33,509 bases of DNA from a virus (lineage: Duplodnaviria; Heunggongvirae; Uroviricota; Caudoviricetes). The stretch lies in IMG/VR virus record IMGVR_UViG_2778261537_000013. The stretch is one strand, 5' to 3'. Both the position numbers and the translations under genes were made by a program. Positions 1 to 17,630 of this stretch are shown here, in pieces; positions within the stretch are counted from its first letter, which is position 1, and each line of letters opens with the position of its first letter. The notes beneath the pieces were generated by a model. It saw nothing but the letters and a program-made list of their open reading frames with translations. It ran no database searches and was not told the origin of the DNA.

Positions 1-141
1 TTACTGCTTACACTGTAAGAACGCCGCAAACTCCGCTCCCCAGAAGCTCATCCGTATTTCGCACAGTGAACCGTGCAGCATCCAGATGATGAGGATTGCC
101 GTCACGCAGAACGTGATGGCCGTAAGCGATTTTTGCGACAT
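1..141 (-). CDS. Hok/Gef-family type I toxin-like small membrane protein (46 aa)
   Basis: Not in the ORF track (<60 aa). Hand translation of the minus strand from ATG 141..139 to TAA 3..1 gives MSQKSLTAITFCVTAILIIWMLHGSLCEIRMSFWGAEFAAFLQCKQ: an N-terminal hydrophobic helix followed by an LCEIR motif, as in Hok/Gef/RelF toxins. AAGGAG lies 8 nt upstream of the ATG. Confidence 0.5.
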   Translation of the reverse strand: MSQKSLTAITFCVTAILIIWMLHGSLCEIRMSFWGAEFAAFLQCKQ

Positions 142-271
142 AGCACTTGCTCCTTTTCTGGAGAGGCGCTAACCTTTCACTTGTCAAGGTAATGCGGTTA
201 GGGCCTCGGTTAAACAGGTATGTTTTCCGGGGCCTTTCCACATCTGGCCTTCGGGTATTCCCTCCGACCAT
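8..271 (-). CDS. Mok-like overlapping reading frame covering the hok-like gene (87 codons)
   Basis: ORF-track frame 8..271 starts upstream of the hok-like ATG, reads through it in another frame and stops just past it. This is the hok/mok translational-coupling architecture; the protein itself is not recognisable. Confidence 0.3.
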   Translation of the reverse strand: MVGGNTRRPDVERPRKTYLFNRGPNRITLTSERLAPLQKRSKCYVAKIAYGHHVLRDGNPHHLDAARFTVRNTDELLGSGVCGVLTV

Positions 272-331: not shown

Positions 332-592
332 TTAATTCTGAGGTAAAGGCAAGCTCATCTGATTGTTTCCCCTGTGTGAAGCTGGCAGCTCATGCCACGG
401 GATACCTTCTGAAGAGTGAACGCCGGAGGCGTGTTTCGATGTGAATTTATGGAAAGCTTCCAGTGTTGAGAAGCATACGCCGCATTCCAGGTTGTTACAC
501 TGGTAATACTTTTGCCGCACAGTGTTTGAATCATTTTCCGGACGACTGGTGCGGATGCGGGCAGATGCGCCACAAAGCGGACAACGGAACAT
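332..592 (-). CDS. ogr: Ogr/Delta-family zinc-finger late-gene transcriptional activator
   Basis: N-terminus MFRCPLCGASARIRTSRPENDSNTVRQKYYQCNNLECGVCF carries the Cys-X2-Cys...Cys-X4-Cys spacing and RTSR motif of P2 Ogr. It is co-directional with D, as in P2. The 86-aa ORF is longer than the 72-aa P2 Ogr, so the C-terminal end is uncertain. Confidence 0.8.
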   Translation of the reverse strand: MFRCPLCGASARIRTSRPENDSNTVRQKYYQCNNLECGVCFSTLEAFHKFTSKHASGVHSSEGIPWHELPASHRGNNQMSLPLPQN

Positions 593-768
593 AGCGACCT
601 CCCTAACGTGGTGCTGCCGCTATTCTAAGTTGTATAAGTTGAGATTCCAACTAACAGCCTGCTTTGAACGATGTTATGATGCATATCTGTGTATTAGTGC
701 ACGGTAGAAACTGTGGTTATCAATTAAAACAAGCAGAAATTATTCTTTCATCTGGAAATGGATAAAAA

Positions 769-1593
769 ATGACTGACTTTAAATATCAATCTGATAGTTA
801 TGATAGACAATCACAAAAATTTGTTATTCCGCTCTACATACGAAATGAACTAGGCGATTATAATTATTCATCGACTGGAACGTTTATATATTACAAGCAA
901 TCACACTATGTGGTTTTTGCTGCTCATGCTCTGAGGGATAAAGATGACATCAGAAATATTTACATACTGGGTTCTGATGGTGAATTTTTTGCTTTGACTA
1001 GTATCTCTATAGGACATCGAATTTTTGAAGAAGATGATTTAGTCATTGTCGATTGCTTTAATATGATACTTGATGGGAAAAATTATTTCTCGCTTAAAGA
1101 TAATTTCAATTTTATTGGATTTGATAAGAAACATTTTGCATGGACAGGCTTCCCTAAAAACTGGTGCAAAACACAAACAATTCACAGAACAAAACGCCCT
1201 AGTTCAATAGTAAATCAAACGGTAGCTTCTAACGAAGATGGCCTGTTTTTTAAAAATGCCAAGTATTTCACTATAATATCCGAGGTTAAAACATTCAATA
1301 AAATTGAAATAACAGGAACATACAAGGTTAAGAATATAGATTTAAAATATAAAGGACAGGTAAGTAAAGGCCCTTCTCCAGAGGGAATGAGTGGTGGTGC
1401 AATGTATTTTTTCTCTAAGGGGCAAGAATTAAAAAAAGAACTGGAGTCAACATTTCTTTTGGCTGGAATTGGTTTGTCTTTTAAAAAAGATGGAACAATA
1501 GTGGGAATTAGCCGTTATCGTATGATTGAGCTATTTGAACAGTTTAATGAAGAATCACCTATAGAGTGTTCTCTTCATTTTCAACAAGAATAA
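769..1593 (+). CDS. Cytoplasmic trypsin/chymotrypsin-fold serine protease-like protein (AT-rich cargo)
   Basis: 274-aa ORF with no N-terminal signal peptide. Candidate catalytic triad in canonical order: His in VVFAAHAL, Asp in DDLVIVD, Ser in GPSPEGMSGGAMYF (GDSGG-like). Strongly AT-rich compared with flanking phage genes, on the opposite strand to ogr and D, with its own terminator. Confidence 0.6.
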   Translation: MTDFKYQSDSYDRQSQKFVIPLYIRNELGDYNYSSTGTFIYYKQSHYVVFAAHALRDKDDIRNIYILGSDGEFFALTSISIGHRIFEEDDLVIVDCFNMILDGKNYFSLKDNFNFIGFDKKHFAWTGFPKNWCKTQTIHRTKRPSSIVNQTVASNEDGLFFKNAKYFTIISEVKTFNKIEITGTYKVKNIDLKYKGQVSKGPSPEGMSGGAMYFFSKGQELKKELESTFLLAGIGLSFKKDGTIVGISRYRMIELFEQFNEESPIECSLHFQQE

Positions 1594-1620
1594 TCCCTGT
1601 GCTCCAATTATACAAAATCA

Positions 1621-1649
1621 CAGCCTCTGTATGAGGCTGTTTTATTTTT
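1621..1649 (+). terminator. Intrinsic terminator downstream of the protease-like gene
   Basis: Hairpin cagcctc-tgtat-gaggctg (7-bp stem) followed directly by TTTTATTTTT. Confidence 0.6.
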
Positions 1650-1809
1650 AACCATTAATTCTTCAATGTGCATAAGCACTATTTAAATGAGCCAAGAAGA
1701 ATATGCTACTAGCTAACAACTCACTATTTAGCATAGAGCCAATTGTTAGATTAAAATCTGGAGATAAGTGTGCCAGCTTGAGTCTGGGTCAATACGTCTA
1801 AATTACTCA

Positions 1810-2916
1810 CTATGTTTCTGCTATCCATTCCGGGATTTTTGCTTCAAGCTCAAGCTGTGTGGTAAAGCCGCTGTTATCAATGGTGTGCTCGGCTTTTGCA
1901 ATAATCCAGTCCTGATTATCAATCTCGCTTTTAAATCCTGTTACCGTGCCATGCATTTCGGGGTAGAGTTCTGCGCGTCCACGTGCCAGTGTGATGGAGA
2001 ATGATGCGGCTCCGCGTTGTAGCTGCTGCCACTTTGCCGCCGCTGCGCGTCTTGCTGCCTGCTCGTTCTGATAAGTCTTGCGTAACACAAACACATTGCC
2101 TTCCGCGCCTTCCATATAATCACCTTCACGGCTGCTGCTTTTCTCCTTTTTGGGTTTTGGCGGTTTGCGGCGTTTCACGCTGACTTTTTTCTTTTTCCCG
2201 TAATTAAGATCAAGCCAGTAAGCGCGTACCCCCGTATACGCTTCGCGGTCAGCAATGCGGAACTGATGGCGATCGCCGCTGCTGCGTGTAATGGCGAACG
2301 AGGGCAACGGCTGGCCCTGCGCGTTCACACCACCACCTGGCATGATGAATAACAGATTGCCGCTTTTTACCGTGGTGATTGCGCCCAGCATTTCCGCCAT
2401 GCGCGTAAGGAAGGACATGTCGCTTTCTTCGGTCTGGTCGGCGTGGTCGATTTCGATATCCATCAGCATTTCGCTGATTTGCGGTTTCAGACCGTACCGA
2501 TGAGCGATGGCGGATACCACACGCTCAACGGTAACATCATGCCAGGACACCTCACGTTTAACGTTAAATTCATCCCGAAAATCTGCGCTTCTGGCTGAAA
2601 CAGTCAGCCTGTCCGGCGGTCCTTCGTGAGCGATTTCATCAACAATGTAAGTGCCTTTTTCTGTCAGCGGTTCTCCTTTCCAGCCAATGAGAACCGTCAG
2701 GCGCGCGCCCCGTGGCGGTAGCTGCAACTGACCATCCGCATCATCCAGCGTGATGGTGAGCTGGTCCGCCTCAAATCCCCGGTTGTCGGTCAGTGACAGG
2801 CTCATCAGGCGCTCTGCCACGCCTGACAACGTTTTACCCTCCGCGAGAATATCAAAATCCGGCATTTTCACGGGGTCTGTGCCCTGACTGAGCAATTGCA
2901 TGGTGGTGTCGGTCAT
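1810..2916 (-). CDS. D: Tail protein gpD (late control gene D family)
   Basis: Protein from MTDTTMQLLSQGTDPV onward matches P2 gpD motifs (LTDNRGFEADQL, GPPDRLT, SARSADF, REVSWHD, SFLTRMAE, GVRAYWLDL). Start set at ATG 2916..2914, preceded by GGGAGGG; the ORF-track frame is open further upstream to 3048. Confidence 0.9.
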   Translation of the reverse strand: MTDTTMQLLSQGTDPVKMPDFDILAEGKTLSGVAERLMSLSLTDNRGFEADQLTITLDDADGQLQLPPRGARLTVLIGWKGEPLTEKGTYIVDEIAHEGPPDRLTVSARSADFRDEFNVKREVSWHDVTVERVVSAIAHRYGLKPQISEMLMDIEIDHADQTEESDMSFLTRMAEMLGAITTVKSGNLLFIMPGGGVNAQGQPLPSFAITRSSGDRHQFRIADREAYTGVRAYWLDLNYGKKKKVSVKRRKPPKPKKEKSSSREGDYMEGAEGNVFVLRKTYQNEQAARRAAAAKWQQLQRGAASFSITLARGRAELYPEMHGTVTGFKSEIDNQDWIIAKAEHTIDNSGFTTQLELEAKIPEWIAET

Positions 2917-3073
2917 TTGTTCCCTCCCTGTGCGGCATGGTCGCATGTGCGTGTGGAGGGGGTTACTGCTTTTTGTTGTCGTCGAATCGGGAGAACGGCG
3001 CAGGGGTGAGATTACGCGCGTGGTGGGTGATGATTGTTGCCGAATCATTTAACGGATACAAGGGGCTGAAGCT

Positions 3074-4258
3074 ATGAGTGAAACTCGTTTTCATGGTGCC
3101 CGTGTTACGGAAAGTACCGACCTGGTAACAGCGATTAATGATGTTGATTCCAGTGTTATCGGTATCGTGGCAACGGCGGATGATGCGGACGCGGAGCTGT
3201 TCCCGCTGAACAAGCCCACACTGCTGACCCGCGTCAATGACGTGCTGGGAAAATGCGGGACAACGGGGACGCTTTATCGTGCGCTTAAGGCTATCGCAGA
3301 CCAGGTGAGCACAAAGGTGATCGTCGTTCGCGTGGCTGAACACAAAGAAGAAGACGGAAAGACACAGGATCAACTGGTTATCGGTGGTTCTGAATCTGAC
3401 GGCAGCTATACGGGGATGTATGCGCTGCTTGTTGCAGAGCAGGATGAAAGCATCGGATACCGTCCGCGTATTCTGGCTGCGCCGGAGCTGGACACGGAGG
3501 CGGTAACAAAATCCCTGTGCGTGATTGCGGGTAAACTGCGCGCGTTTGTGTATGCCTCATGTCACGGCTGTAACACGATGGCTGAGGTGATTACCTACCG
3601 CCAGAAATTCAACGAACGTGAGGTGATGCTCTTATGGCCGGACTTCATCGCCTACAACCCGAAAAGTGGTAAAAACGAAACGTTCCCCGCGCCTGCCTAT
3701 GCGTGCGGCCTTCGTGCGTACATTGACCATGAGCAGGGATGGCACAAATCACTGTCCAACGTTCCGGTTAAAAATGTGCTGGGGATGTCGAGGCATGTTT
3801 TCTGGTCGTTGCAGGCCGAAGACAGTGATGCCAACAGCCTTAACAACAAAGAAATCACGACCATTATTCGTCGCAACGGGTTCCGCTTCTGGGGCAACCG
3901 CACACCGGAAACGAACGCCTACATCTTTGAGGTGTATACCCGAACCGCACAGGTGCTGGCTGATTCAATTGCGGAAGCGCAGTTTGAAACCATCGACAGT
4001 CCACTGACACCTGCGAACGTGAAGGATGTTATCAGTGCCATCAGGGCAAAACTGGATTCACTGGTTACTGCCGGGAGACTGATTGGCGCGGAGTGCTGGT
4101 ATGACGTGGTGGATAACAGCACCACGGATTTACGTCAGGGGCGTGTGCGTATTCGCTACAAATATACGCCCGTTCCGCCACTGGAAGACATGGAGCTTTA
4201 CCAGACGTTTACTGATGAATACTTTGAACCCGCATTTGCGGCGCTGGGAGGTGCCTGA
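3074..4258 (+). CDS. FI: Contractile tail sheath protein gpFI
   Basis: 394 aa with P2 FI-like motifs (FPLNKP, GKLRAF, WPDF, HEQGWHKSLSNV, IRRNGFRFWGNRT, YTRTAQV, YTPVPPLE). Confidence 0.92.
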   Translation: MSETRFHGARVTESTDLVTAINDVDSSVIGIVATADDADAELFPLNKPTLLTRVNDVLGKCGTTGTLYRALKAIADQVSTKVIVVRVAEHKEEDGKTQDQLVIGGSESDGSYTGMYALLVAEQDESIGYRPRILAAPELDTEAVTKSLCVIAGKLRAFVYASCHGCNTMAEVITYRQKFNEREVMLLWPDFIAYNPKSGKNETFPAPAYACGLRAYIDHEQGWHKSLSNVPVKNVLGMSRHVFWSLQAEDSDANSLNNKEITTIIRRNGFRFWGNRTPETNAYIFEVYTRTAQVLADSIAEAQFETIDSPLTPANVKDVISAIRAKLDSLVTAGRLIGAECWYDVVDNSTTDLRQGRVRIRYKYTPVPPLEDMELYQTFTDEYFEPAFAALGGA

Positions 4259-4770
4259 TGGCTGTGCCAAAACATCTTCGCTTTTTTACGCTGTTTGTGG
4301 ATGGTGAAAACGAAGTGGGTAAGGTGACGTCCGTCACTCTGCCTAAGCTGACGCGCAAAACCGACAGCTACCGGGGGGGCGGCATGATGGGTGCGGTAAG
4401 TATTGATCTCGGTCTGGACGACTCCGCGCTTGATGCGAGCTTTGTCATGGGGGGCGCAGTTCGTGAGCTGTTCCTTAAGTATGGCGGCACGATTGACGGC
4501 ACGCTGCTGCGTTTTGCGGGTGAATACTACACCGATGCAGAAAGCGACCTGTATGAAGTCGAAATGCGCGGACGTGTGACGGAAATTGATATGGGGGAGG
4601 CCAAACAGGGCGAAGCCACATCACACACTTACGCCATTAAAAACACCTACTACAAGCTGAGTGTTAACGATCGCCCGTTGTGGGAGATTGACCTGCTGAA
4701 CTTCATTTACCGGAAGGACGGCAAGGACATTGTGCCCGATCGCATCCGTTCCGCGCTTGGGCTTGGCTGA
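4258..4770 (+). CDS. FII: Tail tube protein gpFII
   Basis: 170 aa immediately after FI with an overlapping stop/start; P2 FII-like sequence and size. Confidence 0.9.
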   Translation: MAVPKHLRFFTLFVDGENEVGKVTSVTLPKLTRKTDSYRGGGMMGAVSIDLGLDDSALDASFVMGGAVRELFLKYGGTIDGTLLRFAGEYYTDAESDLYEVEMRGRVTEIDMGEAKQGEATSHTYAIKNTYYKLSVNDRPLWEIDLLNFIYRKDGKDIVPDRIRSALGLG

Positions 4771-4824
4771 TAAGTAATATGCAGGCGGCGCAGTGCGTCG
4801 CCTCTGACTGCAAGGAGTTTCCTG

Positions 4825-5190
4825 ATGAAAGAGACGAAAAACATCGATACCGAAAACACGGTAGTTGCTGACACGGTGAAAGAAACCAGTGAGCGTGGCG
4901 TAAAACTTACCCAACCAATTGAGCGAGGCGGCGAAAAAATCACGTATGTGGAGATCACCGGGGCTATTGAGCAGGCTGGATCTCTGCGAGATTTGTCGCT
5001 GTCTGATGTGCTGAATCTGAAAGCGGAATCCATGTTTACGCTGCTGTCACGCGTGACATCACCGCGACTGGATGAAGTGACGATCAAAAAAATGGCATCC
5101 CGTGACTTTATTCAGTTATGTGTGGTTGCCGTAAATTTTTTGAGCGGTGCGGACTCTGGCGGGAAGAACGAACAGGCGACGGAAGCCTGA
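4825..5190 (+). CDS. E: Tail assembly chaperone gpE (zero-frame product)
   Basis: 121-aa ORF between tube and tape-measure genes, with a T-run slippery site near its 3' end. Confidence 0.85.
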   Translation: MKETKNIDTENTVVADTVKETSERGVKLTQPIERGGEKITYVEITGAIEQAGSLRDLSLSDVLNLKAESMFTLLSRVTSPRLDEVTIKKMASRDFIQLCVVAVNFLSGADSGGKNEQATEA

Positions 5191-5354
5191 TCACGGTTGT
5201 GTGCTTTGAGCACATAGAAGACTTTGTGGCAGATATTGCCGTTATTTTTAACTGGTCGCCCGCCGAAATCTTCATGATGACGCCCGGCGAAGTGGTTAGC
5301 TGGCGTGAGCGGGCGGCACTTCGCAGCGGGAATGCAGATAATGAAGACTCTTGA
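4825..5354 (+). CDS. E': gpE+E' extended tail assembly chaperone made by a programmed -1 frameshift
   Basis: The -1 frame (ORF track 5118..5354) is open across the 3' end of E. Slipping at AAT TTT TTG yields ...NFF ERCGLWREERTGDGSLITVV..., matching the downstream ORF, which ends where T begins. Confidence 0.7.
5136..5142 (+). other. Candidate -1 frameshift slippery heptamer (TTTTTTG) of the E/E' pair
   Basis: T6G run located inside the E/E' frame overlap; the same arrangement is described for P2 E/E'. Confidence 0.65.
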
Positions 5355-8148
5355 TATCCGGGTCGCTTTCAGCGCCGTTGACAGGCTGACCCGGCCTGCC
5401 GAAAACGCCCGCCGCCTGATGGGGCAGTTTGGTGACTCCATCCAGCGAACGCAGGGGGCGATCAAAAATCTCGAGCGTCAGGCGCGTTCATTTGAGCGCG
5501 CCCGCGACGCTGTCAGTAAAGCGGATGCTGGCATATTGAAAGCACGACGCCAGCTTAACGCCCTTAATCAGTTACAACGCACGGGTACAGTGCTCAGCGA
5601 AAAACAACAAAAGCTGATGCAGCAGTTAAGCACCCGGCTTGAACGCCTGAATGAATCGCGCACACGGGAAATTCAGAAAATGCGGGAGCTTGGCGGAGAG
5701 CTGAAACGCCACGGCATTTCCCTGACAGGCAGCGATAACACCATCCAGCAGGCCATCAGACGCACCGAACAGTACAACAACCAGCTTGAACGCGAACGGC
5801 AGGCGCTTGCGCGTGTAACACGGGCGCGTGAGCGGTATTCGCGCGCGCAGGAAACAGCGGGAAAACTGAAAACAGGTGGTGCGCTGGCAATTGGTGCGGC
5901 AGCGGCGGGCGGCTATGCTGCCGGGCGTTTTTTGCAGCCTGCGATCGGGTTCGGCAAAGAGATGTCCCGCGTTCAGGCACTGACGCGAATCGACAAAAAC
6001 AGCCCGCAGTTTAAGGCGCTGCGTGAGCAGGCGTTAAAACTTGGCTCTGAAACACAGTTTACTGCGAGTGATGCCGCCAGTGGGCAGAGCTTTCTGGCAA
6101 TGGCTGGTTTTACTCCGCAGGCCATTCAGGCCGCATTGCCCGGTGTTCTTAATATGGCGCTGGCAGGTGGCGTCGAACTCGGCGAGACGGCTGATATAGG
6201 CTCCAATATCCTCACACAGTTCAACCTGACAGCCGATCAAATGGACCGGGTGGGCGATACGCTGACAGCAGCATTCACCCGGACCAATACTGATTTACGC
6301 GCGCTGGGCGAAACCATGAAGTATACCGGTCCGGTTGCCGCAAAACTTGGTATCAGTCTTGAAGAAGCGGCGGCCATGGCCGGGATGCTTGCCAATAATG
6401 GTCTTCGCGGAAGCGATGCTGGCACGGCCATGCGCGCAAGTCTGTCCCGCCTTGCATCACCGCCAAAAGCTGCGGCTGATGCGCTGAAAGAGCTGGGGGT
6501 GTCAGTTGCTGACGCCAGAGGCAAAATGCGCCCGATGGAGGATGTGCTGCTTGATCTCTATAAGGCGACACAAAAATACGGACAGGTGGACCAGGTTTCC
6601 TTCTTCAAGGACATCGCCGGAGAAGAGGCGTTTGTTGGTTTACAGACGCTTGTTGCAGCGGCTGGTTCAGGAGAGCTGCAAAAACTGACCAGAGAATTGC
6701 AGGGGGCAAGGGGAGAGGCCGATCGCGTTGCAAAAGTAATGGCCGATAATCTTGATGGTGACCTGAAAAATCTCGACAGCGCATGGGAAGGTCTTCGTAT
6801 TCGCATCAGTGATCTGGTTGACGGTCCGCTGCGTTCTGTCACGCAGTGGCTCACGCGGGTACTTGAAAAAATCACCTCGCTGGCGCAGGCCCATCCGGTA
6901 CTGACGCGCCAGCTACTGATAGCAGGCGGTGCGTTGCTGGCAATGACTGCAACGATTGGCTCGTTGTCACTGGTTATTGGGGTGCTTTACGGGAAGCTGG
7001 CCACCCTGCGTCTTGGTTTCGAAATTCTTACCCGGTCAATGAATGTTGTCAGAGTGTTGCCTGCGTTATGGGGAATGGTGACGGGGTCCGTTTCTTTACT
7101 GGGAGGCGCTATCGGGGCGTTGTTCAGTCCGGTCGGTCTTATCGTGGCTGCGCTTGCCGGAGCTGCCGTTCTCATCTGGAAATACTGGGATCCCATCAGG
7201 GCATTTTTTGCCGGGGTGTTCAGCGGGATTATGGAAAGGCTGACCCCGTTGCGCGAAACCTTTGAACGGTTTGGCCCTGTTTTTGACGCAATCGGAAGCG
7301 GGATCAGCCAGGTGTTTAACTGGTTTAAATCGCTGTTGTCACCGATGGAGTCCAGCAAGGAAACGCTGGATAAATGTACCAGTGCTGGCGAGATATTCGG
7401 TAACGTTCTTGGTGGCGCGCTACAGCTTGTTCTGACGCCTGCAAAAATGTTGCTGGATACGCTGGCGTGGATACTTGAAAAACTCGGTGTGCTTCCGGAT
7501 GAAGCGGAAAGGGCGAGAAAGAAAATCGAAGACGCACAGCGTGCGGCCATTCTTCAGGACAAGGTTGCTCTGTTTCAGGGAGACATTGCGAAAATCAATC
7601 CGCCGAAGTCTGCGGAAAATGGCAATGGCACCGGAGGCGATAAACCCAAAGACAACAAACCGCTCACAGACAGCAATACCGGCACGTTACGCAGACTCAG
7701 CAAAATTGCTGATAACACAGGTAAGCTGGTTGATGAGACGAAAAAACGCATTGGCCCCGGCGATATTGTCTTTAAGAACCTGCCCCGCGCACTTGCTGTT
7801 CGTGGGGAGTGGCAGGAGCGGAAGATTGCACAGGTCAGTAAGCCTGCCCCCGCAATTAATATCACCCCCGTGGTCCCGGCTCCGCTGCCTCCGGCGCTGG
7901 TCCCTGTTGTTGCGGCCAGCTCCCGCCCGGTGGCGGAGGCCATACGATCTCCAGTGGCATCAGTTCCTGTAACTTCCCGTAACCGGGAGCCTGTTGCCTC
8001 CGGATTTGGTGGTGAAATTCATGTTCATCTGCATAACGTTGTTACGCAGAATCCCCGCGAACTGGCGAAACTGGTCGGTGAAATGGTCAGGGCAGAATTG
8101 GAACGACGCGACCGTGCCGGACGTGGCAGTTTTTACGATAAAGATTGA
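5341..8148 (+). CDS. T: Tail tape measure protein gpT
   Basis: About 936 aa with an N-terminal coiled-coil region, a central alanine/glycine-rich segment and hydrophobic stretches, in the position after E/E'. Start chosen at ATG 5341 (MKTLDIR); in-frame alternatives at 5305 and 5332 cannot be excluded. Confidence 0.85.
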   Translation: MKTLDIRVAFSAVDRLTRPAENARRLMGQFGDSIQRTQGAIKNLERQARSFERARDAVSKADAGILKARRQLNALNQLQRTGTVLSEKQQKLMQQLSTRLERLNESRTREIQKMRELGGELKRHGISLTGSDNTIQQAIRRTEQYNNQLERERQALARVTRARERYSRAQETAGKLKTGGALAIGAAAAGGYAAGRFLQPAIGFGKEMSRVQALTRIDKNSPQFKALREQALKLGSETQFTASDAASGQSFLAMAGFTPQAIQAALPGVLNMALAGGVELGETADIGSNILTQFNLTADQMDRVGDTLTAAFTRTNTDLRALGETMKYTGPVAAKLGISLEEAAAMAGMLANNGLRGSDAGTAMRASLSRLASPPKAAADALKELGVSVADARGKMRPMEDVLLDLYKATQKYGQVDQVSFFKDIAGEEAFVGLQTLVAAAGSGELQKLTRELQGARGEADRVAKVMADNLDGDLKNLDSAWEGLRIRISDLVDGPLRSVTQWLTRVLEKITSLAQAHPVLTRQLLIAGGALLAMTATIGSLSLVIGVLYGKLATLRLGFEILTRSMNVVRVLPALWGMVTGSVSLLGGAIGALFSPVGLIVAALAGAAVLIWKYWDPIRAFFAGVFSGIMERLTPLRETFERFGPVFDAIGSGISQVFNWFKSLLSPMESSKETLDKCTSAGEIFGNVLGGALQLVLTPAKMLLDTLAWILEKLGVLPDEAERARKKIEDAQRAAILQDKVALFQGDIAKINPPKSAENGNGTGGDKPKDNKPLTDSNTGTLRRLSKIADNTGKLVDETKKRIGPGDIVFKNLPRALAVRGEWQERKIAQVSKPAPAINITPVVPAPLPPALVPVVAASSRPVAEAIRSPVASVPVTSRNREPVASGFGGEIHVHLHNVVTQNPRELAKLVGEMVRAELERRDRAGRGSFYDKD

Positions 8149-8154
8149 GGAGTC

Positions 8155-8649
8155 ATGGCCATGATGATGATCTACGGCATGTTTGTTTTTGAGTTGCGCA
8201 CGTTGCCGCATCAGCAGTTACAGCAAAACAAAAGCTGGCGACATGTGAAAAATGAACGCGTTAACCGTTCGGCAAGCTGGCAGTATATCGGTGCAGGTGA
8301 TGATCGCATCGTTCTTTCGGGTGTTCTTTATCCTGAGATTACAGGTGGCGAAGTGTCGCTGTCGTTGTTGACCACGCAGGCATATACAGGACGCCCCTGG
8401 CCTCTGATTGATGGCGTCGGGCAGATTTACGGCATGTATGTCCTGACCGGAACGAATACGACCCGCTCCGAGTTTGATCGCTACGGTAAGGCGAAAAAGA
8501 TAGAATTTTCACTGACTCTTGAACGCTGTGATGAGGATTTGCGGGAGCGCCTGCAATCCTCATCGTTCAGCGATATGTTGTCCGGCTTCAAAGATAAGGT
8601 GACATCATCCCTTAACAGCGCGGCCAGTTCAGTTAAGGGGCTGCTCTGA
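8155..8649 (+). CDS. U: Tail protein gpU
   Basis: 164 aa; MMMIYGMFVFELRTLP...SWRH...ITLSGVLYPEITGG...WPLIDG resembles the P2 gpU family; lies directly after T. Confidence 0.88.
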   Translation: MAMMMIYGMFVFELRTLPHQQLQQNKSWRHVKNERVNRSASWQYIGAGDDRIVLSGVLYPEITGGEVSLSLLTTQAYTGRPWPLIDGVGQIYGMYVLTGTNTTRSEFDRYGKAKKIEFSLTLERCDEDLRERLQSSSFSDMLSGFKDKVTSSLNSAASSVKGLL

Positions 8650-8659
8650 TTTAACGTAT

Positions 8660-8702
8660 GTCGCCAGTTTCCTGATGAAGGTGACTGGCGACTTGCTGTT
8701 GT
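8660..8702 (+). terminator. Candidate intrinsic terminator after U
   Basis: 9-bp inverted repeat gtcgccagt / actggcgac with a 15-nt loop, followed by a T-rich tract (ttgctgttgt). Confidence 0.45.
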
Positions 8703-8805
8703 ATGTCCTTCTCAGAAAATTGTTTTTGAATAACAAATAACAGGATTTTATAATCTCTTAACCTTATAACATGTGTGGTCTGAAATAATAATTAAGGAGA
8801 TTATC

Positions 8806-9378
8806 GTGCTGTCTTACTTAATGGCAATTCACTTTGTTTTATTTGGGAACTCTACTAATTTAAAAAACTTCTGGAAATATGAAGTAATTCGGCGGAAACG
8901 TATGGATATCTGGAGGCTTTTAAGAGAGAAAAAACAGCGTAACCGGAATTTCCTTTTCTGGTGGCGGTTGGCTAACGAAATGTATATTAATGGTAATAAA
9001 TCACATAAGAAAGCAGCCAAAAAGTTAAACAGTAAAATAATTAACAAATTTGGTTGCGAAATTGGATTGGGCGCAAATATTGGAAAAGGGTTAACAATTC
9101 CCCATCATGCTGGAATTGTTGTTCATTTTGCTGTTGATGCTGGTGAAAATCTGGTGTTACGACAGAATACGACCATTGGACAGATAGATGGTGACATACC
9201 TGGTTCAAGAGTAAAAATTGGTAGCAACGTTGATATCGGAGCTAATTGTTGCATCATTGGATTATCACGTAAAATTGGGGATAATGTAAAAATAGGTGCA
9301 ATGTCTTTTATAAATAAAGATATACCATCGAACTGCACATATATAACTAAAAAGAGCGGTGTTGTATTGTATAAATAG
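8806..9378 (+). CDS. Hexapeptide-repeat (left-handed beta-helix) acetyltransferase, CysE/WcaB/NodL-like (AT-rich cargo at the Z/fun position)
   Basis: C-terminal half is built of hexapeptide repeats (IGANIGKGLTI, IGSNVDIGANCCIIG, IGDNVKIGAMSFI). GTG start at 8806 is preceded by AAGGAGA; the ORF-track frame opens at 8773. Visibly AT-rich; lies between U and G on the strand opposite to G. Confidence 0.65.
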   Translation: MLSYLMAIHFVLFGNSTNLKNFWKYEVIRRKRMDIWRLLREKKQRNRNFLFWWRLANEMYINGNKSHKKAAKKLNSKIINKFGCEIGLGANIGKGLTIPHHAGIVVHFAVDAGENLVLRQNTTIGQIDGDIPGSRVKIGSNVDIGANCCIIGLSRKIGDNVKIGAMSFINKDIPSNCTYITKKSGVVLYK

Positions 9379-9387
9379 AGTACATAA

Positions 9388-9424
9388 AGCCATCGATACT
9401 TCTATCGATGGCTTTTTCTTTTTA
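9388..9424 (+). terminator. Strong intrinsic terminator between the acetyltransferase gene and the 3' end of G
   Basis: 11-bp perfect stem agccatcgata / tatcgatggct with a cttc loop, followed by TTTTTCTTTTT. Confidence 0.75.
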
Positions 9425-10000
9425 TTGTGGGGCGACTGGCCACTCAATATCTGCTGCTACTGTTGTATCAACACGATTCAACAATACTCGATATGTCTTC
9501 CATGCTGCCAGTAACGATGCCTCTTCCTCCGTCGCAATATCCAAATCTATAGCATCCTGAAGTGGTGCAATATGCTCACTGGCTACCTGCATCAGGCTGT
9601 TTTTTGTTTCTTCCGCCTCCCTTATCCGAAATAGTTTTTCTGCTTCTGCATCTTTCACCCAGGATGTGCCGTTCCACTTCTGATACTCTCCATACGGCGA
9701 CAACCAGGTAACATTTTCCGGTAACGGACCGAGTTCAGAAATAAATAACGAGTCCCCTGATGCCACGTCATAAACCGTTTTACCCCGATGGTCTTCCACG
9801 AGATGCCACGATGCCTCATCACTGTTGAAAACGGCCACGAAGCCAGCCGGAATATCTGGCGGGGCAATATCGGTACTGTTTGCAGGCAGACCTGTATGAG
9901 GTGGAATGTATGCATCACCTTCACCAATAAACTCATTGGTTCCGGTCAGTAGATTATAAATTTTTATGGTCCGTGATTGTTCACTCATTCTGAATGTCAT
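9422..10000 (-). CDS. G: Tail fiber assembly protein (gpG-like)
   Basis: 192 aa directly downstream of the tail fiber gene with an overlapping stop/start; size and position match P2 G. Confidence 0.8.
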
Positions 10001-12132
10001 TATGCAAGCCTCACAATATAGTTAAATGCGATGTTTTTTACGGTGTTTTCTGCGTTCCCCGTAGCATTAACGGTGATGGTGTGTCCGTGGGGACCAATAA
10101 TGACAGAATGGGCATGAGCACCAATGCCGATAGTGTGGTTATGGGCACCGATATATACATTGTGAGCATGCCCTCCTGCGCTCGACGTGGTACCAGTACC
10201 TAACGCAGCGTTATAACCGGCTGATACACCATTCCCCGCGCCAGTGTGACCAACAGGTATATTGTGTGAATGAGCTCCTGCGCTATTTGTGGTTTTTGTG
10301 CCGTAATCAAATGAACTGGTCGTTTTAGTACCGTAATCAAACGACGATGTGGTTTTCGTCCCCAAATCAGTACTGGATGCGCTGGCGCTGTGGGTGTGCG
10401 ATTTAATGCCGTCCTGTTCCTGAGACAATACGGCACGACCACTGGCAGGTTTGCCCTTGATAGTCCAGCCACGCATATCAGGGATCACGCCTGACGGATA
10501 AGCGACTGCAAGTTTCGGGTATGCAGATTTGTCAAAAGTCTGCCCCTGCATCAGGGTATAACCAGACGGAACGGTATCTGATGGCCACGGAATCGGTGCA
10601 CCGACTGGATAAAACTCTTCAGGAGGATGAGCCGAGGTGTAAAGCTGCGCCCACGGCGACCAGTTTGCGTCGGTCGTATCCCGTCGTGAACGAATAAATG
10701 CCGGAGCATGAGCACCGCTTATACCACTCCAGCCGATGAGTAATTCGCCTTCGCCAACGGCTGTCATCCCTTTCAGGTGAATGATATTTCCATACGCTGT
10801 TGGATATCCGTTGTTATACGCCTCGTATAACTCCAGACCTGTGGCCCCCTGCATATTATCTGTCAGGGCGGTCACCCGACCTTTTGAAGCCAGATTAACT
10901 GACGATACTGCTGTCCCATCTGACGGTAACGCCCCGATCTCTGATGCTGTTGGCTTATTCCTGGAGTTATAGTCCCTTCGCCAGCCAGGAGCATAAGCAT
11001 CACCATGATTAATATAAGTAAATTGAGCATTAGGGATGCCTTCACCGCTGGATGTACTCGGTGTGGTAATGCGTATGGTCATTGCGCCGCGGGTGCCAAT
11101 AACTTCCACAACAGCACCTGCAAGACAAATATTTCCGCAACCTGTATCTGTAATGACCTTATTACTTGCATAAGCCCATGAGCCTTTGCACATCCAGTAA
11201 GGATGGTTAAATGCCCCCTGACTCTCTAGCCAAAAAATCAACTGCGCAGTTGTCCATGCTTCACTATCTCCACCAATATTCAGCTCTGCACTATATGCAC
11301 GGCAGGCACCGATATTTTTCGTAAAGGTGTCTTTGTCAGAGATATCCTCACCATTCTTAGCTTTCTGCAGACGTTTTTCAGCATTGTCATAGGCAGCTTT
11401 TACTGCATTTGATGTTGCCGCCAGCGTTTCAGACGTGCTGTTGGTTGCACTGCTGAGCTGGACTATCCCTTTTTGTGCCGTAGTGGCGTCCTGAGCGGTA
11501 TATTTTCCGTTAGCCATGTCATACGCTGCCTTAACCGCTTTCGGCGTTGCAGCCAGCGTTTCAGAATCGCTGTTAGTGGCGCTACTGAGTTGAACAAAGC
11601 CTTTTGCGGTCAGCGAGGCGTCCGGGTGACGTCGTGACTGTTCATGTTCTTTCAGTTTGTCATTCACGTAATCCACTGTGGCCATAACCATGGTGTTATC
11701 CACGGTAAGCGCCACGGTGGCAGTGCTGGATACGGTCAGAATGGTGCGAAATGTTTGTGCACGTCCGGATCCTTCGGCAACGGTTGGCTTGTAACTTTCG
11801 GCAGTATTGCCCACCGCGATCAAATCGCCGTGCTCATCAAATACACCAATTTCCCGGATCCAGAATCCGCCCGTTTCAGGAGGAATAACCAGCTCCGCAA
11901 TAATGCGGTTCTGATGTGTTGCGTCCAGGATGACGCGATTAACAGTATGTCGCCACACCTCATGCACCAGACGGGTCTGCTTACTGTCTGGTGTGGGCAA
12001 CGTGCCGCCACCGTCGCCCACGGCCATGTGAGTCAGGCGGACAGGATTACCATCTGGCGCGGCTGCCTGAGCTAATTTTTTGGCACCAGTATCAGTGATA
12101 ATGGTTTTAAATTTTCGTGTTGTGGTACTCAT
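10000..12132 (-). CDS. H: Tail fiber protein gpH
   Basis: 710 aa; N-terminus [23 protein letters not shown]... is P2 H-like. Internal duplicated motif ([23 protein letters not shown] twice) and a C-terminal tip with [10 protein letters not shown] tandem repeats and His-X-His repeats. Confidence 0.88.
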
Positions 12133-12134
12133 GC

Positions 12135-12665
12135 TTAATCGTCCGGATAAATGGTAATGACTTCACCGTCGTAAGTTGCTGCCGCCGCGAAAATATCCCC
12201 CGGGATCTCCTGAATGATATTCAGCCCTGTCATGTGGCGGCTGACCGGGCGGGCATCAGCAATCAACCGCTCCATTTCCAGATACATTTCCTCCGTCACG
12301 CCACTGTCCAGCGTGCCGACTTCAACGGTAAATGTTCCCGGTTCTCCGCCGAACTCCCACCACTCAGACACACGAATGAGGTATCCCAGCGGCTCAATGG
12401 CCCGGCGCAGTGCGCTGATGGTCCCTTTGTGTCGGTGTATCAGCCATGCATCACGAATCACCTGTCGCTTTGTCTCTTCCGGCCAGTTGCGATCCCAGCG
12501 GTCAACGGAAAATGCCCAGGCGAGATAAGGCAGCAGATGCACCGGGCAGGTGTCCGGCGACCACAGCGTGTTGAGGTCTACCGGAATGTCTGTAATGCGC
12601 GTTCCGACAGCTTCGGCACAACGCATGAAATTGCTGGCTGATGGCGGTAACAGTGAATTACTCAT
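12135..12665 (-). CDS. I: Baseplate protein gpI
   Basis: P2 gpI-like; start chosen at the internal Met (MSNSLLPP), giving 176 aa and an 8-nt overlap with J. The ORF-track frame is open to 12698. Confidence 0.85.
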
Positions 12666-13554
12666 TACGCCCACCTTCGCTGATGGTGAATGACTCACAG
12701 CGCGCCGCCTGTATGTCGCTGATGGCCATATTTTGTGTGGGTTCGATTATCTCCACGCGTTGCACACCGTGCACATGCAGTGCGGCAGCAATGGCGGACA
12801 ACGCCACGTCCTGACCGATAAGCCCCTGCTCAGACAGCCACTTCCTGAACGACGATTCCGCCGCGGCCAGAATAGGTTCGGATTCCGGGCCGGGGTAAAA
12901 GTACAGTTTTGCATTCAGCCGCCATGTCACGATTCTGGCACTCTGTACGGTCAGGCGGTCGGCCACCGGGCGGGTATCCTCTGCATTCAGAACGGCGCGA
13001 ACGGTATTAAGCAACGCCTCCGTTGCTGTGCCGTCGCCCTCAGTGGACAGGATGGAAACCGTCACGTTGGCCGGAGACGGGCTGATGGCCCGCGCATCGC
13101 GTACCAGACCGCTGGCGCTGCGGGCAAAATACTCGTATGCACCTGAAGGGCCAGCAACACTCAGACCGTCATATGCCCGTTGCGCCCGTAGTCTCAGCGA
13201 GGTGTCACTTTCCATCACTGCGTCGGTGGTATCCGTTGCCGGAGTGATGGTCAGGCGTTTTGTGTTCATATTGCCCGCGAGGTTGTCCAGGTCTGTCCCG
13301 GCGCTGTGGCTTAACATGCAGGCGCGTGCCCCCTCATTGATCCGCTGGCGTAACAGCATTTCGCGAAACGCTGTTGTCTGGGCGATAACGTTCAGGGGTT
13401 CCGATTCCAGCTCCAGCGCGGCGGAGACGGCTTCACGCTGTTCGGCGGGATAAGCCGCAATCATCATGGCCTTTGTGTCAGCCAGAATTGCCTCAAACTC
13501 AGGCTCCGCGATGATGGCGGGTTCCGGTAACTGGGAAAGGTCAACAGCAGGCAT
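12658..13554 (-). CDS. J: Baseplate wedge protein gpJ
   Basis: 298 aa, P2 J-like, between W and I. Confidence 0.88.
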   Translation of the reverse strand: MPAVDLSQLPEPAIIAEPEFEAILADTKAMMIAAYPAEQREAVSAALELESEPLNVIAQTTAFREMLLRQRINEGARACMLSHSAGTDLDNLAGNMNTKRLTITPATDTTDAVMESDTSLRLRAQRAYDGLSVAGPSGAYEYFARSASGLVRDARAISPSPANVTVSILSTEGDGTATEALLNTVRAVLNAEDTRPVADRLTVQSARIVTWRLNAKLYFYPGPESEPILAAAESSFRKWLSEQGLIGQDVALSAIAAALHVHGVQRVEIIEPTQNMAISDIQAARCESFTISEGGRNE

Positions 13555-13557
13555 GAT

Positions 13558-13908
13558 TTACTCTCTCAGCGTGATGGTTAATTCAACATTCTGCATGGTC
13601 TGCATGACAGTGCCCGACAGCGTCACCCCGGCGCGGCCTCCTGCCTTCCAGACAACGTCGATAGCGTCCAGGGCAATGCGGGGTTCCCATCGTGTCAGCG
13701 CAATCACGGCAGCACTCATGCATTGCAGACGCGTGGTGTTATTCATGGGTTCGTCAATCAAATCAGGCACAAGGCTGCCATATTCCCGTCGCATAACCCG
13801 GCTTGCCAGCGGGGTGGTCAGGATGTCCCTGACTGACTGTTTCAGGTGTTCCATATCGTTCAGGTTTCCCGTCCCGTCCGGGTTCATTCCTGTGTAGCGG
13901 GTTGTCAC
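13558..13908 (-). CDS. W: Baseplate protein gpW
   Basis: 116 aa; gp25/gpW-family size and position between V and J. Confidence 0.88.
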   Translation of the reverse strand: MTTRYTGMNPDGTGNLNDMEHLKQSVRDILTTPLASRVMRREYGSLVPDLIDEPMNNTTRLQCMSAAVIALTRWEPRIALDAIDVVWKAGGRAGVTLSGTVMQTMQNVELTITLRE

Positions 13909-14486
13909 TGCGGGCCTCCTGTCGAATCGCTGCCACCTTTAACGCCACCGTGTTTATGCGTATGCACTGTGATGCCGTTTGAGGTGAAGTCGCCGCCGCT
14001 GTGCGTGATATTGCCGCTCATCTTTCCCCCTTTTGTGACGTCAATCTCGGCTGTTTTCAGAAGGTTTGTGCATTCCACGACGGGTGTATCCAGTTTCACG
14101 CTGACGGATGCCTGCAAAGTGGCCGTTTTCATGCCGCTGGCACTCAGTGCGCCTGCGTCCGCGTCGTAGCGGAACACCGCGCCGTCCGGCGCGCTGATCA
14201 CGATTTCTTTCAGGCTTTTGCCGGGTGCCGGATTGGCATCACTCCACAGGCTGCCAATTATCATGGCGGTTTCCGGGTTGCCGCCAATGCAGGCAATGAC
14301 CACCTGTTCGCCTGGTGATGGCGGCAGCCACACATTGAAGGCCCCCGCGCGCGTGGTGTTCCAGCGCAACCAGCCTGTTTCCAGTTCGCCGCTGCGAACG
14401 CGCACGCGCCAGGATTCCTCATCAACTTCAGAGATGATCCCGGTGCGGATGATGTTGCTCAGCAGCCGCATGAGTTCTGCGCTCAC
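13905..14486 (-). CDS. V: Baseplate spike/assembly protein gpV
   Basis: 193 aa, P2 V-like, with overlapping stop/start to W. Confidence 0.88.
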   Translation of the reverse strand: MSAELMRLLSNIIRTGIISEVDEESWRVRVRSGELETGWLRWNTTRAGAFNVWLPPSPGEQVVIACIGGNPETAMIIGSLWSDANPAPGKSLKEIVISAPDGAVFRYDADAGALSASGMKTATLQASVSVKLDTPVVECTNLLKTAEIDVTKGGKMSGNITHSGGDFTSNGITVHTHKHGGVKGGSDSTGGPQ

Positions 14487-15127
14487 CGTACAGCCTCCGC
14501 AATCCGGCCCAGCACCGTGTTATAAATCAGGCGTTCATCTGCCTGACTGATGCCCAGCAGCTCACGTACCGGGTAATCGGTGAAAATGCCCGGCGCAACC
14601 TGATCGCGCTCACCGAACTGATGAACGCGTGCAATACGTGCGGCCACGCCGCTGTAACCCACCGTCACACCGGAAGCATCTGCACGGGCTTTCAGGTAGC
14701 GGGCGGTGCGCAGTTTTACGAACATGGGGACGCGCTTTGTGCTGTCCTGGTTGATGCGCCGGGTGCGTATTTCCAGAAAACGGTCGATGTCATCCCGGTA
14801 AAACGTGCGGATATTGTTTTTATCCTCATCCCACCCGGTAATGGTTCGCCCGTATTTCCCCGTGTCGTGATGCCAGTTTTTCAGCGTGCGTGCTTCGTTA
14901 TTCCAGATAAAGCGAATGCGCTCCTGTATCCGGGTTACGCGGCGTCTGCGTGGTGTCCATGCGGTCCCGTCCGGCGCTTTCTGTGACCGGATACGTGCCT
15001 GCTGGGCGCGACGTAAATCCTGTGCCAGCTTTCTGGCGATGTTATTGATGGCCTGCTGATTCAGGCTGTCGCGGATAGCCTCAAAGGTTTCATCCACGCG
15101 GATGAATGCCTTATCCATCGCTTTCAC
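14483..15127 (-). CDS. S: Tail completion / virion morphogenesis protein gpS
   Basis: 214 aa in the position between R and V; basic and arginine-rich like the Phage_tail_S family. Longer than P2 S. Confidence 0.78.
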   Translation of the reverse strand: MKAMDKAFIRVDETFEAIRDSLNQQAINNIARKLAQDLRRAQQARIRSQKAPDGTAWTPRRRRVTRIQERIRFIWNNEARTLKNWHHDTGKYGRTITGWDEDKNNIRTFYRDDIDRFLEIRTRRINQDSTKRVPMFVKLRTARYLKARADASGVTVGYSGVAARIARVHQFGERDQVAPGIFTDYPVRELLGISQADERLIYNTVLGRIAEAVR

Positions 15128-15578
15128 CCCACGTCACATCCTGGAATACATGCGACCAGTCGCCTTCGGAAGATGGCAGGCGGGGTTTTGGCTCCGGCAG
15201 GTGTTCTGCCTGCGGCGTGCCCTGACTGCTGCGCGTGATGCGAACGCGTTCCCGCAGAGGGAGCGTAAACAGGAGATCGGCGCTGTCATCGTCATTGATA
15301 ACGGCGGAAAATTTGATGTCCTGATTACGCTCCGGATTGAGCAACAACTGCGGCTGATTTTCGGATAACCACGCCAGTAGCGGCAGCGTGAGGTCGTCCA
15401 GCTCCCCGGCGTAATCCATGACAAACATCACTATCTGATAGCGGTAAACAAACGATGGAGTTTCTCCGGTCGTTTCAATGTTGCCGCTCTCTACGAAAAT
15501 GGTGAATTTTTCCGGGTTAGCCTGACACCATCGGCATGAACGGGTCATGGCTTCACGCAGGGAATCAGTTTTCAGCAT
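15111..15578 (-). CDS. R: Tail completion protein gpR
   Basis: 155 aa; position after the lysis cassette and size match P2 R. Confidence 0.8.
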   Translation of the reverse strand: MLKTDSLREAMTRSCRWCQANPEKFTIFVESGNIETTGETPSFVYRYQIVMFVMDYAGELDDLTLPLLAWLSENQPQLLLNPERNQDIKFSAVINDDDSADLLFTLPLRERVRITRSSQGTPQAEHLPEPKPRLPSSEGDWSHVFQDVTWGESDG

Positions 15579-15855
15579 GGTTGTTATCCTCGTTGTTCAG
15601 TCGTTGCAGCCTGCGCTGTTCCAGTAATTCAATGGCCCGTTTATCCGCGTTACAGGTTTCCAGTGCATCCAGAAGGCGGTCGCCCCATATACCGAGATTT
15701 CCCCATGTGGGAGTGTCAGGGAAGGGGGGAGGCGTTACCGGTATGGTCAGCGTCTGCGGTATAAGCCGGACTGACGGCGCTGGCCGTGGCGCGTTCTGCG
15801 TGCCTGCGCAGCCTGTCAGTAAAACGAGCGTCAGGCAAAGCGTGGGCGCATTCAT
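15565..15855 (-). CDS. lysC: Outer-membrane spanin lipoprotein (LysC/Rz1-like)
   Basis: Signal peptide with lipobox MNAPTLCLTLVLLTGC, proline-rich mature part; out of frame and overlapping the 3' half of the i-spanin gene. Alternative GTG start at 15885. Confidence 0.65.
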   Translation of the reverse strand: MNAPTLCLTLVLLTGCAGTQNAPRPAPSVRLIPQTLTIPVTPPPFPDTPTWGNLGIWGDRLLDALETCNADKRAIELLEQRRLQRLNNEDNNHAEN

Positions 15856-16832: not shown

Positions 16833-16834
16833 TG

Positions 16835-17538: not shown

Positions 17539-17630
17539 TCCTGAAAAAATCGGGCGGTGGGTGCGCGGTGTAAACGGTCACGGAGTCAAACCGGAACACC
17601 GCGCACGCCGCCCGCTGACGGGGTCAGTCG

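Follow-up and report, generated by a model that had tools for sequence, protein, structure and literature searches.

In phage P2, the F operon is read from the late promoter pF through FI, FII, E, E', T, U and D and is followed by ogr, with D as the last gene of the operon, overlapping U. Two other late promoters of P2, pO and pP, share a single annotated activator site (3057..3087 of the P2 record), and their starts at 3127 and 3016 lie 55.5 bp on each side of its centre. The published consensus for P2 late promoters is TGT-N12-ACA (PMC3931495). Phage P88 of the genus Xuanwuvirus is inducible and plaque-forming, with a burst of about 65 and a contractile tail (PMC5285337), phiSM of the same genus forms plaques and lysogens (PMC6456863), and SEN4/5 have contractile tails (PMC5261728). 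In the searchable literature on P88-type phages, P2-like genomes and Ogr promoters, we found no explicit description of the inversion treated here and no mapped D promoter.

Judged by sequence comparison, the window (the whole 33,509-nucleotide stretch of viral DNA analysed here) is a P88-like prophage of the genus Xuanwuvirus, family Peduoviridae, and its genes follow the order usual for that lineage. The late genes around the tail block are as follows.

332..592, minus strand: ogr/Delta-type zinc-finger late activator, 86 aa (PF04606, E = 5e-14, score above gathering)
1810..2916, minus strand: D, baseplate hub, 368 aa (PF05954, phrog_52)
3074..4258, plus strand: FI, tail sheath (PF04984, PF22671, PF17482; phrog_23)
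4258..4770, plus strand: FII, tail tube (PF04985, E = 7.5e-47)
4825..5190, plus strand: E, tail assembly chaperone (phrog_103)
-1 frame to 5354, plus strand: E', tail assembly chaperone (P2-type slippery TTTTTTG at 5136..5142)
5305..8148, plus strand: T, tape measure (PF10145, phrog_28)
8155..8649, plus strand: U, tail protein (PF06995, E = 1.5e-38)
8659..8693, plus strand: hairpin after U (-30.1 kcal/mol, z = -5.8, 0/200 shuffles as stable)
9422..10000, minus strand: G, tail-fibre assembly protein, last of the O-to-G series (PF02413, phrog_105)

The strands and gene identities given in the initial annotation agreed with the Pfam and PHROGs matches. Open reading frames and profile matches place D, ogr and the O-to-G series (20422..9422) on the minus strand and FI-FII-E/E'-T-U (3074..8649) on the plus strand, where P and Q are also located. 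The coordinates likewise bear out the divergence of D from FI over a 157-bp spacer (2917..3073), and the hairpin reported downstream of U is a strong fold that probably terminates the FI-U operon. The window has the genes of the P2 F operon in the same internal order and shares the E/E' frameshift heptamer with P2; it also encodes an activator of the Ogr type and carries, ahead of FI, a pF-like site and -10. The difference is in D, which in the window lies on the other strand, 157 bp from FI, and is separated from U by 5.2 kb, so that the canonical P2-type adjacency of U and D is absent. Because FI-U faces the opposite way to D, D is outside the FI-U transcript. The start of D is the ATG at 2916, which has an AGGGAGG ribosome-binding site upstream and is also the annotated start in P88; a longer D frame of 412 aa reaching 3048 was rejected as over-extended. 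The start of T is likely the ATG at 5341, matching the P88 annotation. None of the window's tail genes is disrupted, and the E/E' slippery site is preserved as well. The one gene that had been misplaced is ogr. No protein family matched the ORF at 8..271, to which it had been assigned, and the PF04606 match falls on 332..592. The product of the latter carries the cysteine motif CX2CX24CX4C, as against CX2CX22CX4C in P2 Ogr, and an NCBIfam PRK09678 match below cut-off.

The arrangement is shared by the Xuanwuvirus phages P88, 500465-2, PhiR44_2, P884B11 and phiSM, in which the DNA from D through U is 92-97% identical to the window (the comparison covered 1500..9600, and D-through-U makes up about 85% of that 8.1-kb query). 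A single colinear megablast match spans D, the spacer and FI-U in all five, and 520873 and 503458 match in two pieces around an IS100 insertion. The order in these phages is ogr, D, a 157-bp spacer, and FI, FII, E, E', T and U, followed by H-I-J on the strand of D; the D proteins are 97-99.7% identical, the highest value being that to P884B11. The same inverted FI-U block is present in Reginaelenavirus (Klebsiella 3LV2017), Senquatrovirus (Salmonella SEN4/5), Novemvirus (Enterobacter phiT5282H) and Serratia KSP20, whose D and U proteins are 53-77% identical to those of the window and whose cargo and early regions differ from it.

What varies among close relatives is the cargo at the two ends of the block. 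The following elements occupy these slots in the window.

632..1804, no strand assigned: low-GC cargo insertion between D and ogr (GC 35%; aligned to the P88 D-ogr gap)
8773..9378, plus strand: hexapeptide acetyltransferase cargo gene in the variable U-G slot (Pfam Hexapep)
9386..9415: two-way terminator after the acetyltransferase gene

In relatives ogr lies 45-55 bp 3' of D, and the gap is 48 bp in P88, whereas the window carries the 1.17-kb insertion there. Within the insertion, which is bounded by TCTAAGTT and TCTAAATT, lie a two-way hairpin (1620..1640) and, on the plus strand at 769..1593, an orphan ORF of 274 aa. Pfam, PHROGs, PADLOC and NCBIfam gave no match in 632..1804, and PADLOC and NCBIfam had none for the 274-aa protein or the other orphan ORFs. 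The slot after U, taken up in P88 by a DNA invertase and an invertible tail-fibre segment, holds the acetyltransferase gene in the window; the NCBIfam acetyltransferase matches of this gene were all below cut-off.

The distribution of the inverted order is wide. Phage records whose D is at least 60% identical number 48; in 46 of these, U is on the opposite strand, and the other two keep D divergent from FI. Among complete phage records at this level, which belong to at least four ICTV genera, all have the inverted order except CP052639, which has undergone a further rearrangement yet keeps the D-FI junction. In records with a D of 53% identity or less, U and D are adjacent on one strand; such adjacency is found in P2, 500465-1, YenM_06.16-2, ENT90, phiCTX and KP12. 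Prophage loci from about 25 genera of Enterobacterales read I+ H+ G+ [U- T- E- FII- FI-] D+ ogr+ for the genes inside the locus. Of 5426 complete E. coli genomes, 1358 contain a colinear match (95-99% identity) to 2600..3400 of the window, which spans the D/FI junction, and a synthetic canonical U-D junction was joined in none of the 1412 E. coli genomes holding the sequences. Distance-based trees of D, FI, FII and U recovered the inverted-order group as monophyletic, with bootstrap values of 100, 100, 97 and 99, respectively. These results show that a single inversion of the pF-through-U segment took place in the common ancestor of an enterobacterial P2-related clade and has been fixed since. 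D and ogr kept their place, giving the order ...H G, then U T E FII FI, then D ogr.

The initial annotation had explained the same layout by a ~5.7 kb inversion that separated D from the promoter of the tail operon and might leave the prophage tail-defective. As comparative anatomy against P2 the inversion holds, D being on the strand opposite to FI-U, but as a recent event private to this prophage, with a severed D and perhaps a cryptic phage, it has practically no probability. Phages that have been isolated and form plaques carry exactly this arrangement and junction, the junction is in the 1358 E. coli genomes, the order recurs across four ICTV genera and about 25 host genera, and the synthetic junction search revealed no close relative (>95% identity) with the canonical order. 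The suggestion of a tail defect likewise fails, since phages of this order form plaques and have contractile tails and the tail genes of the window are intact. Short inverted repeats at the two junctions, a check suggested there, were searched for in 1700..9500, and none of the 25 longest of 84 repeat pairs links 2917..3073 with 8650..8805. The same search bears on the possibility of an assembly artefact, in which the contig would have been mis-joined or flipped between repeats; no repeats that could cause a flip were found at the junctions among those 25 pairs, and a mis-join is hardly conceivable for a junction that is colinear in so many independent complete genomes and in independently sequenced phages. 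FI-U could also be imagined as a programmed invertible segment, turned by a Gin/Cin-type invertase and present in both orientations in populations, and P88 and phiSM do encode a DNA invertase immediately 3' of U. But the Gin, Cin and Hin segments have flanking crossover repeats and occur in both orientations, and the FI-U block shows neither: inverted crossover repeats flanking it were absent from the 25 longest pairs, the other orientation was seen in 0 of the 1412 E. coli genomes, and intact loci of other genera are all in the same orientation. The window has no invertase, and that of P88 adjoins its usual target, a set of alternative genes for tail fibres and their assembly, so we regard programmed inversion of FI-U as extremely improbable. 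The tail-block order is an old evolutionary rearrangement and not prophage damage, because it is fixed across a large group of working P2-related phages.

A further point is the expression of D. The elements recognised in the D/FI spacer, and one related site elsewhere in the window, are listed below.

2917..3073, no strand assigned: divergent control region between D and FI, proposed two-way late promoter, 157 bp
2937..2956, minus strand: D-side conserved block with a -10-like hexamer and a GC-rich run (majority fraction 0.82)
2974..2994, plus strand: Ogr-type site TGTTGT-N12-AGA (dyad TGT-N12-AGA at 2977..2994, centre 2985.5)
3029..3034, plus strand: predicted pF -10, GATGAT (GATTAT or GAATAT in relatives; majority fraction 0.82)
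20459..20479, plus strand: second TGTTGT-N12-AGA site, in the divergent O/P spacer (centre 20470.5)

The spacer is 157 bp long in P88, phiSM and SEN5 and 153 bp in 3LV2017; in 3LV2017 and SEN5, which have usable annotated starts, the range is thus 153-157 bp. In all 49 unique homologous spacers the distance from the dyad to each of the two start codons is constant. The dyad is TGT-N12-ACA in 21 of them and has AGA as its right half in 25 and AGG in 3; 3LV2017, SEN5 and KSP20 have the canonical TGT-N12-ACA. The window dyad is one mismatch from this consensus; this form was noticed only on alignment of the relatives. Exact TGT-N12-ACA matches the window twice, neither time at a promoter, against 8.5 matches expected by chance. 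Conservation was calculated as the majority fraction over 48 unique homologous spacers. It was 0.98 for TTGTTGT and 0.82 for both -10 blocks, compared with 0.60 at third codon positions of FI and 0.54-0.67 elsewhere in the spacer. The D-side hexamer is GACCAT in the window, and relatives show AACTAT, AACCAT, AATCAT or GATCCT at this position; A2 and T6 are constant throughout. From this geometry the D transcript is predicted to start near 2930, 55.5 bp from the dyad centre, with a leader of only about 15 nt, and the FI transcript near 3041, with a distance from the -10 to the site about that of P2 pF. Both -10s are weak and have no recognisable -35, akin to GAAACT, TAGCCT, GAAAAT and CAATCT of P2; GACCAT is no weaker than the -10s of the mapped P2 late promoters. 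The conservation on the D side could instead mark the binding site of another protein.

Since the spacer geometry matches that of the single P2 site common to the divergent pP and pO, D probably has its own late promoter. The two regions have in common one midway dyad, starts about 55 bp away (predicted ones in the window), weak NANNNT -10s without a -35, and a TGTTGT half-site. They differ in that the window pairs D with FI and that the right half-site is AGA and not ACA, and also in their basis, because P2 has mapped starts and an annotated site whereas the D/FI version is predicted from conservation and geometry. A proviso of the initial annotation, that D might have acquired a late promoter, is suggested by a comparative footprint for a promoter that is predicted only. 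A conserved order in a related clade with a mapped D promoter had been named there as grounds for refuting its reading; the order is indeed clade-wide, and the D promoter is predicted, not mapped.

The O/P spacer of the window, where O probably starts at the ATG at 20389, offers a precedent within the genome for a shared two-way site, and the O/P spacers of 3LV2017, SEN5 and CP052639 each have one central site as well. TGTTGT-N12-A[GC]A occurs on either strand of the window only twice, in the D/FI and O/P spacers, a count that is not independent evidence because the motif was derived from those same two spacers. With this motif no further activator site, such as one for V, was found in the window; V overlaps S, so this clade is without a separate pV.

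We propose that the inversion brought D up against the upstream flank of the dyad at which Ogr binds pF, and that this one dyad would now serve a divergent pair of late promoters, with pF starting rightwards at about 3041 and pD leftwards at about 2930, each start about 55 bp from its centre. D, in most relatives with ogr just 3' of it, would be expressed late as its own short unit, and the FI-U operon would terminate at the hairpin 8659..8693. The Ogr/Delta-type activator encoded in the window is consistent with this model. The clade-wide order could also be combined with an Ogr-independent promoter of D in the spacer, whether weak and constitutive, middle, or dependent on another activator. 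The GC-rich block CGCGCGC(A/G)TG outside the published Ogr consensus, the imperfect window dyad, and the fact that P2 ogr itself has such a promoter and D is linked to ogr here all speak for it. No sigma-70 consensus promoter was found within 2917..3073, however, and the D-side hexamer is placed as needed from the dyad centre, with its A2 and T6 kept. Similar GC-rich runs lie 5' of the -10 in the pP and pF promoters of P2 and in the predicted pP of the window, and D is a structural late protein needed together with FI-U. An Ogr-independent D promoter therefore appears rather unlikely. We lean towards an ancient inversion after which the pF dyad was co-opted as a two-way element driving a new late promoter of D, and it is quite likely that the whole explanation lies in the ancient inversion together with an Ogr site shared by pF and pD.

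As this layout is normal for a common and functional phage lineage, the arrangement is no ground for calling a prophage defective or misassembled. Gene-order rules derived from P2 fail for a large clade of Peduoviridae whose members occur in one of every four complete E. coli genomes. If the promoter model is true, the late genes of this clade would all run from two bidirectional activator sites, P/O and D/FI, and the D/FI spacer would be a natural case of promoter capture that rescued an essential gene orphaned by rearrangement. The inverted-order clade may serve as a testable case of one activator site supporting two divergent late promoters after a rearrangement.

The genes of the window were named from the ORF listing together with family scans, which confirmed the gene identities and strands proposed in the initial annotation.

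Tail block and associated late genes of the window
332..592, minus: ogr (PF04606, E = 5e-14)
1810..2916, minus: D (PF05954, phrog_52)
3074..4258, plus: FI (sheath domains)
4258..4770, plus: FII (PF04985)
4825..5190, plus: E (phrog_103)
ending at 8148, plus: T (PF10145)
8155..8649, plus: U (PF06995)
9422..10000, minus: G (PF02413)
up to 20422, minus: remainder of the O-to-G block
plus: P and Q

The D ORF of 412 aa was too long at its N-terminus; the family match begins at residue 43. The start of D is the ATG at 2916, which is preceded by an AGGGAGG ribosome-binding site and agrees with the annotated start in P88, and the D-FI spacer is therefore 157 bp (2917..3073), as first described. The hairpin 3' of U was also recovered (8659..8693, -30.1 kcal/mol, z = -5.8). 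All tail genes of the window are full length, and the slippery heptamer TTTTTTG of E/E' is intact (5136..5142), equivalent to that of the P2 frameshift site. The ORF at 8..271 had no match in the family scans and was dropped as ogr in favour of 332..592, identified by PF04606.

A megablast search of phage records with 1500..9600 returned single colinear matches over D, the spacer and FI to U at 92-97% identity to P88, 500465-2, PhiR44_2, Citrobacter phiSM, P884B11 and Chuche, and the matches to 520873 and 503458 were split in two around an IS100 insertion. The matched phages having a taxonomy line belong to the genus Xuanwuvirus of the family Peduoviridae, and these close relatives are annotated with the layout of the window, D and the sheath gene diverging across 157 bp. 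Within the region tested, both sequence and gene order place the window in Xuanwuvirus. The junction probe (2600..3400, 801 bp) was colinear in 1358 of 5426 complete E. coli genomes at 95-99% identity, and for a synthetic canonical junction, composed of the U 3' end and the D 5' end, 1412 genomes contained both halves but none had them joined; misassembly and a switchable segment are therefore both excluded as explanations of the order. On neither test did the window resemble a programmed invertible segment. Among the 25 longest of 84 inverted-repeat pairs in 1700..9500, none links the two block junctions of the window, and the U-D adjacency that defines the canonical P2 F operon is absent.

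A tblastn comparison of D and U positions was extended to 50,697 phage records. D was at least 60% identical in 48 of these, every one of the inverted type, and U was on the strand opposite D in 46; the 6-kb KSP20 fragment is without U and has D divergent from FI, and CP052639 retains the D-FI junction with an extra rearrangement splitting FI. The inverted type includes Klebsiella 3LV2017 (Reginaelenavirus), Salmonella SEN4/5 (Senquatrovirus), Enterobacter phiT5282H (Novemvirus) and Serratia KSP20. At D identities of at most 53%, U and D were adjacent on one strand in every record sampled, including P2, Wphi, 500465-1, KP12, phiCTX, and Yersinia, Erwinia, Burkholderia and Ralstonia phages. In a prophage scan of one genome per species (47 loci, about 25 Enterobacterales genera), tblastn with the window proteins gave I, H, G, D and ogr on one strand and U, T, E, FII and FI on the other where the genes were present. 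In neighbour-joining trees rooted on phiCTX, the inverted-order phages formed one clade with bootstrap values out of 100 of 100 (D), 100 (FI), 97 (FII) and 99 (U), and every outgroup has the canonical order. This is most simply read as a single ancient inversion in the clade's ancestor, and the order is almost certainly fixed clade-wide. The arrangement is on record as the standard layout both for P88-type phages and for a further three ICTV genera, and our literature search found no paper remarking on the inversion or mapping a D promoter.

Several phages with this order are viable. P88 was induced by mitomycin C and formed plaques with a burst of about 65, and electron micrographs showed a contractile tail (PMC5285337); phiSM was released spontaneously, formed plaques on K-12 and lysogenised it (PMC6456863); long contractile tails were described for the plaque-purified SEN4/5 (PMC5261728). 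The inverted arrangement is compatible with function, and with the window tail genes full length, the suggestion that an orphaned D makes the prophage tail-defective was unsupported. The proposed inversion of ~5.7 kb holds relative to P2; instead of recent or disabling, it is ancient, fixed and harmless.

Other features of these loci were also observed. In the Klebsiella locus of CP052639.1 (22546..25891), the FI 5' part is still divergent from D, and the FI 3' part with FII to U lies across D-ogr on the far side in the opposite orientation, through either a second inversion, one of whose breakpoints falls within FI, or misassembly of a linear 'plasmid' contig. In the window, a 1.17-kb low-GC (about 35%) insertion at 632..1804, flanked by TCTAAGTT and TCTAAATT, separates ogr from D, whereas the D-ogr gap of P88 is 48 bp. 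It carries a hairpin (1620..1640) and a plus-strand ORF of 274 aa (769..1593), convergent with D and without a match in Pfam, PHROGs, PADLOC or NCBIfam; this may be an accessory or defence gene not recognised as such, carried in a hotspot for cargo. The D-ogr distance is likewise about 1.5 kb in a Vagococcus sp. WN89Y contig (L009); D of this contig and of a Planococcaceae MAG contig (L050) matches the E. coli prophage gene at 98-99% identity, and these Firmicutes-labelled loci are most likely enterobacterial DNA contaminating the assemblies. The U-G slot (8773..9415) holds a hexapeptide acetyltransferase gene (RefSeq: serine acetyltransferase) with its own sigma-70-like promoter match and a two-way terminator, whereas in P88 and phiSM the slot is occupied by an invertible tail-fibre segment together with a DNA invertase. 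Two far larger Escherichia phages, vB_EcoM-Ro157c2YLVW (81 kb) and JL22 (100 kb), carry the acetyltransferase-plus-tfa module at 92% identity. The Rfam IS009 (predicted sRNA) match inside the tail-fibre assembly gene G (9459..9657, minus strand, 186 bits) probably reflects coding-sequence conservation, not a separate RNA gene. Plasmid-type partition genes, ParM/StbA (PF06406, PF21523) and a Plasmid_stab_B protein, sit at 24332..25604 (minus strand) in this integrase-bearing P2-like prophage; the related Klebsiella element CP052639 was deposited as a 32-kb 'plasmid', which together raises the question of some such phages persisting as episomes. Rfam matches above the gathering score to C4 antisense RNA (29235..29322) and isrK (29358..29432), both on the minus strand, fall within an Ash-family protein ORF (28872..29489) and suggest that the early region has an immunity element of the P1/P4 type, based on antisense RNA.

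The P2 late-promoter consensus TGT-N12-ACA is bound by the zinc-finger protein Ogr (PMC3931495), a homologue of which is encoded in the window. No exact TGT-N12-ACA is present in the spacers of the window; alignment with relatives identified a one-mismatch TGT-N12-AGA at 2977..2994, preceded by TTGT. TGTTGT-N12-A[GC]A occurs just twice on both strands of the 33.5 kb, in the D/FI spacer and in the spacer between the divergent O and P (20459..20479), a count that is descriptive only, these being the two sequences that defined the motif. Among 49 unique homologous D/FI spacers the site is at a constant position, as TGT-N12-ACA in 21, AGA in 25 and AGG in 3, its centre being separated from the start codon of FI by 78.5-88.5 bp and from that of D mostly by 62.5-76.5 bp. 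A conserved GATTAT, GAATAT or GATGAT lies 55.5 bp to the right of the centre (3029..3034 in the window), and a conserved block, CGCGCGC(A/G)TG-AAC(T/C)AT, lies 55.5 bp to the left (GCACATGCGACCAT in the window, at 2937..2950), its hexamer retaining the critical A2 and T6.

Majority fraction over 48 unique aligned spacers
TTGTTGT: 0.98
D-side block: 0.82
F-side -10: 0.82
rest of the D/FI spacer: 0.54-0.67
FI third codon positions: 0.60
FI first codon positions: 0.88

We propose that the late promoter pF moved along inside the inverted segment, which would have brought D next to the pF dyad on its upstream side. This dyad would now act both ways, with pF starting at about 3041 and a leftward D promoter, pD, at about 2930, giving a leader of about 15 nt that includes the ribosome-binding site. 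The chief alternative is that D has an Ogr-independent promoter within the same spacer; no sigma-70 consensus promoter was found there, as expected of activator-dependent late promoters. We regard the dyad-driven pF/pD mechanism as reasonably probable. It is a variant of the documented shared activator site of P2, in whose reference record a single site (3057..3087) is annotated for the divergent pP and pO, with mapped starts at 3016 and 3127, each 55.5 bp off the site centre, and weak -10 elements (GAAACT, TAGCCT) without a -35. One central site was likewise found in each O/P spacer of the window, 3LV2017, SEN5 and CP052639. The listed O ORF begins at 20422; the ATG at 20389 (MANEKK...) corresponds in alignment to the initial methionine of P2 gpO, which suggests that it is the real start. 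Placing the site 55 bp from an O transcript start requires this ATG, with which the O/P geometry of the window agrees with P2.

V overlaps S by 4 bp (13905..15127), so that there is no room for a separate P2-like pV region. Transcription of the entire late gene set may start from two bidirectional control regions, the O/P and D/FI spacers, and the two-way promoter would be a small, testable addition to a known arrangement.
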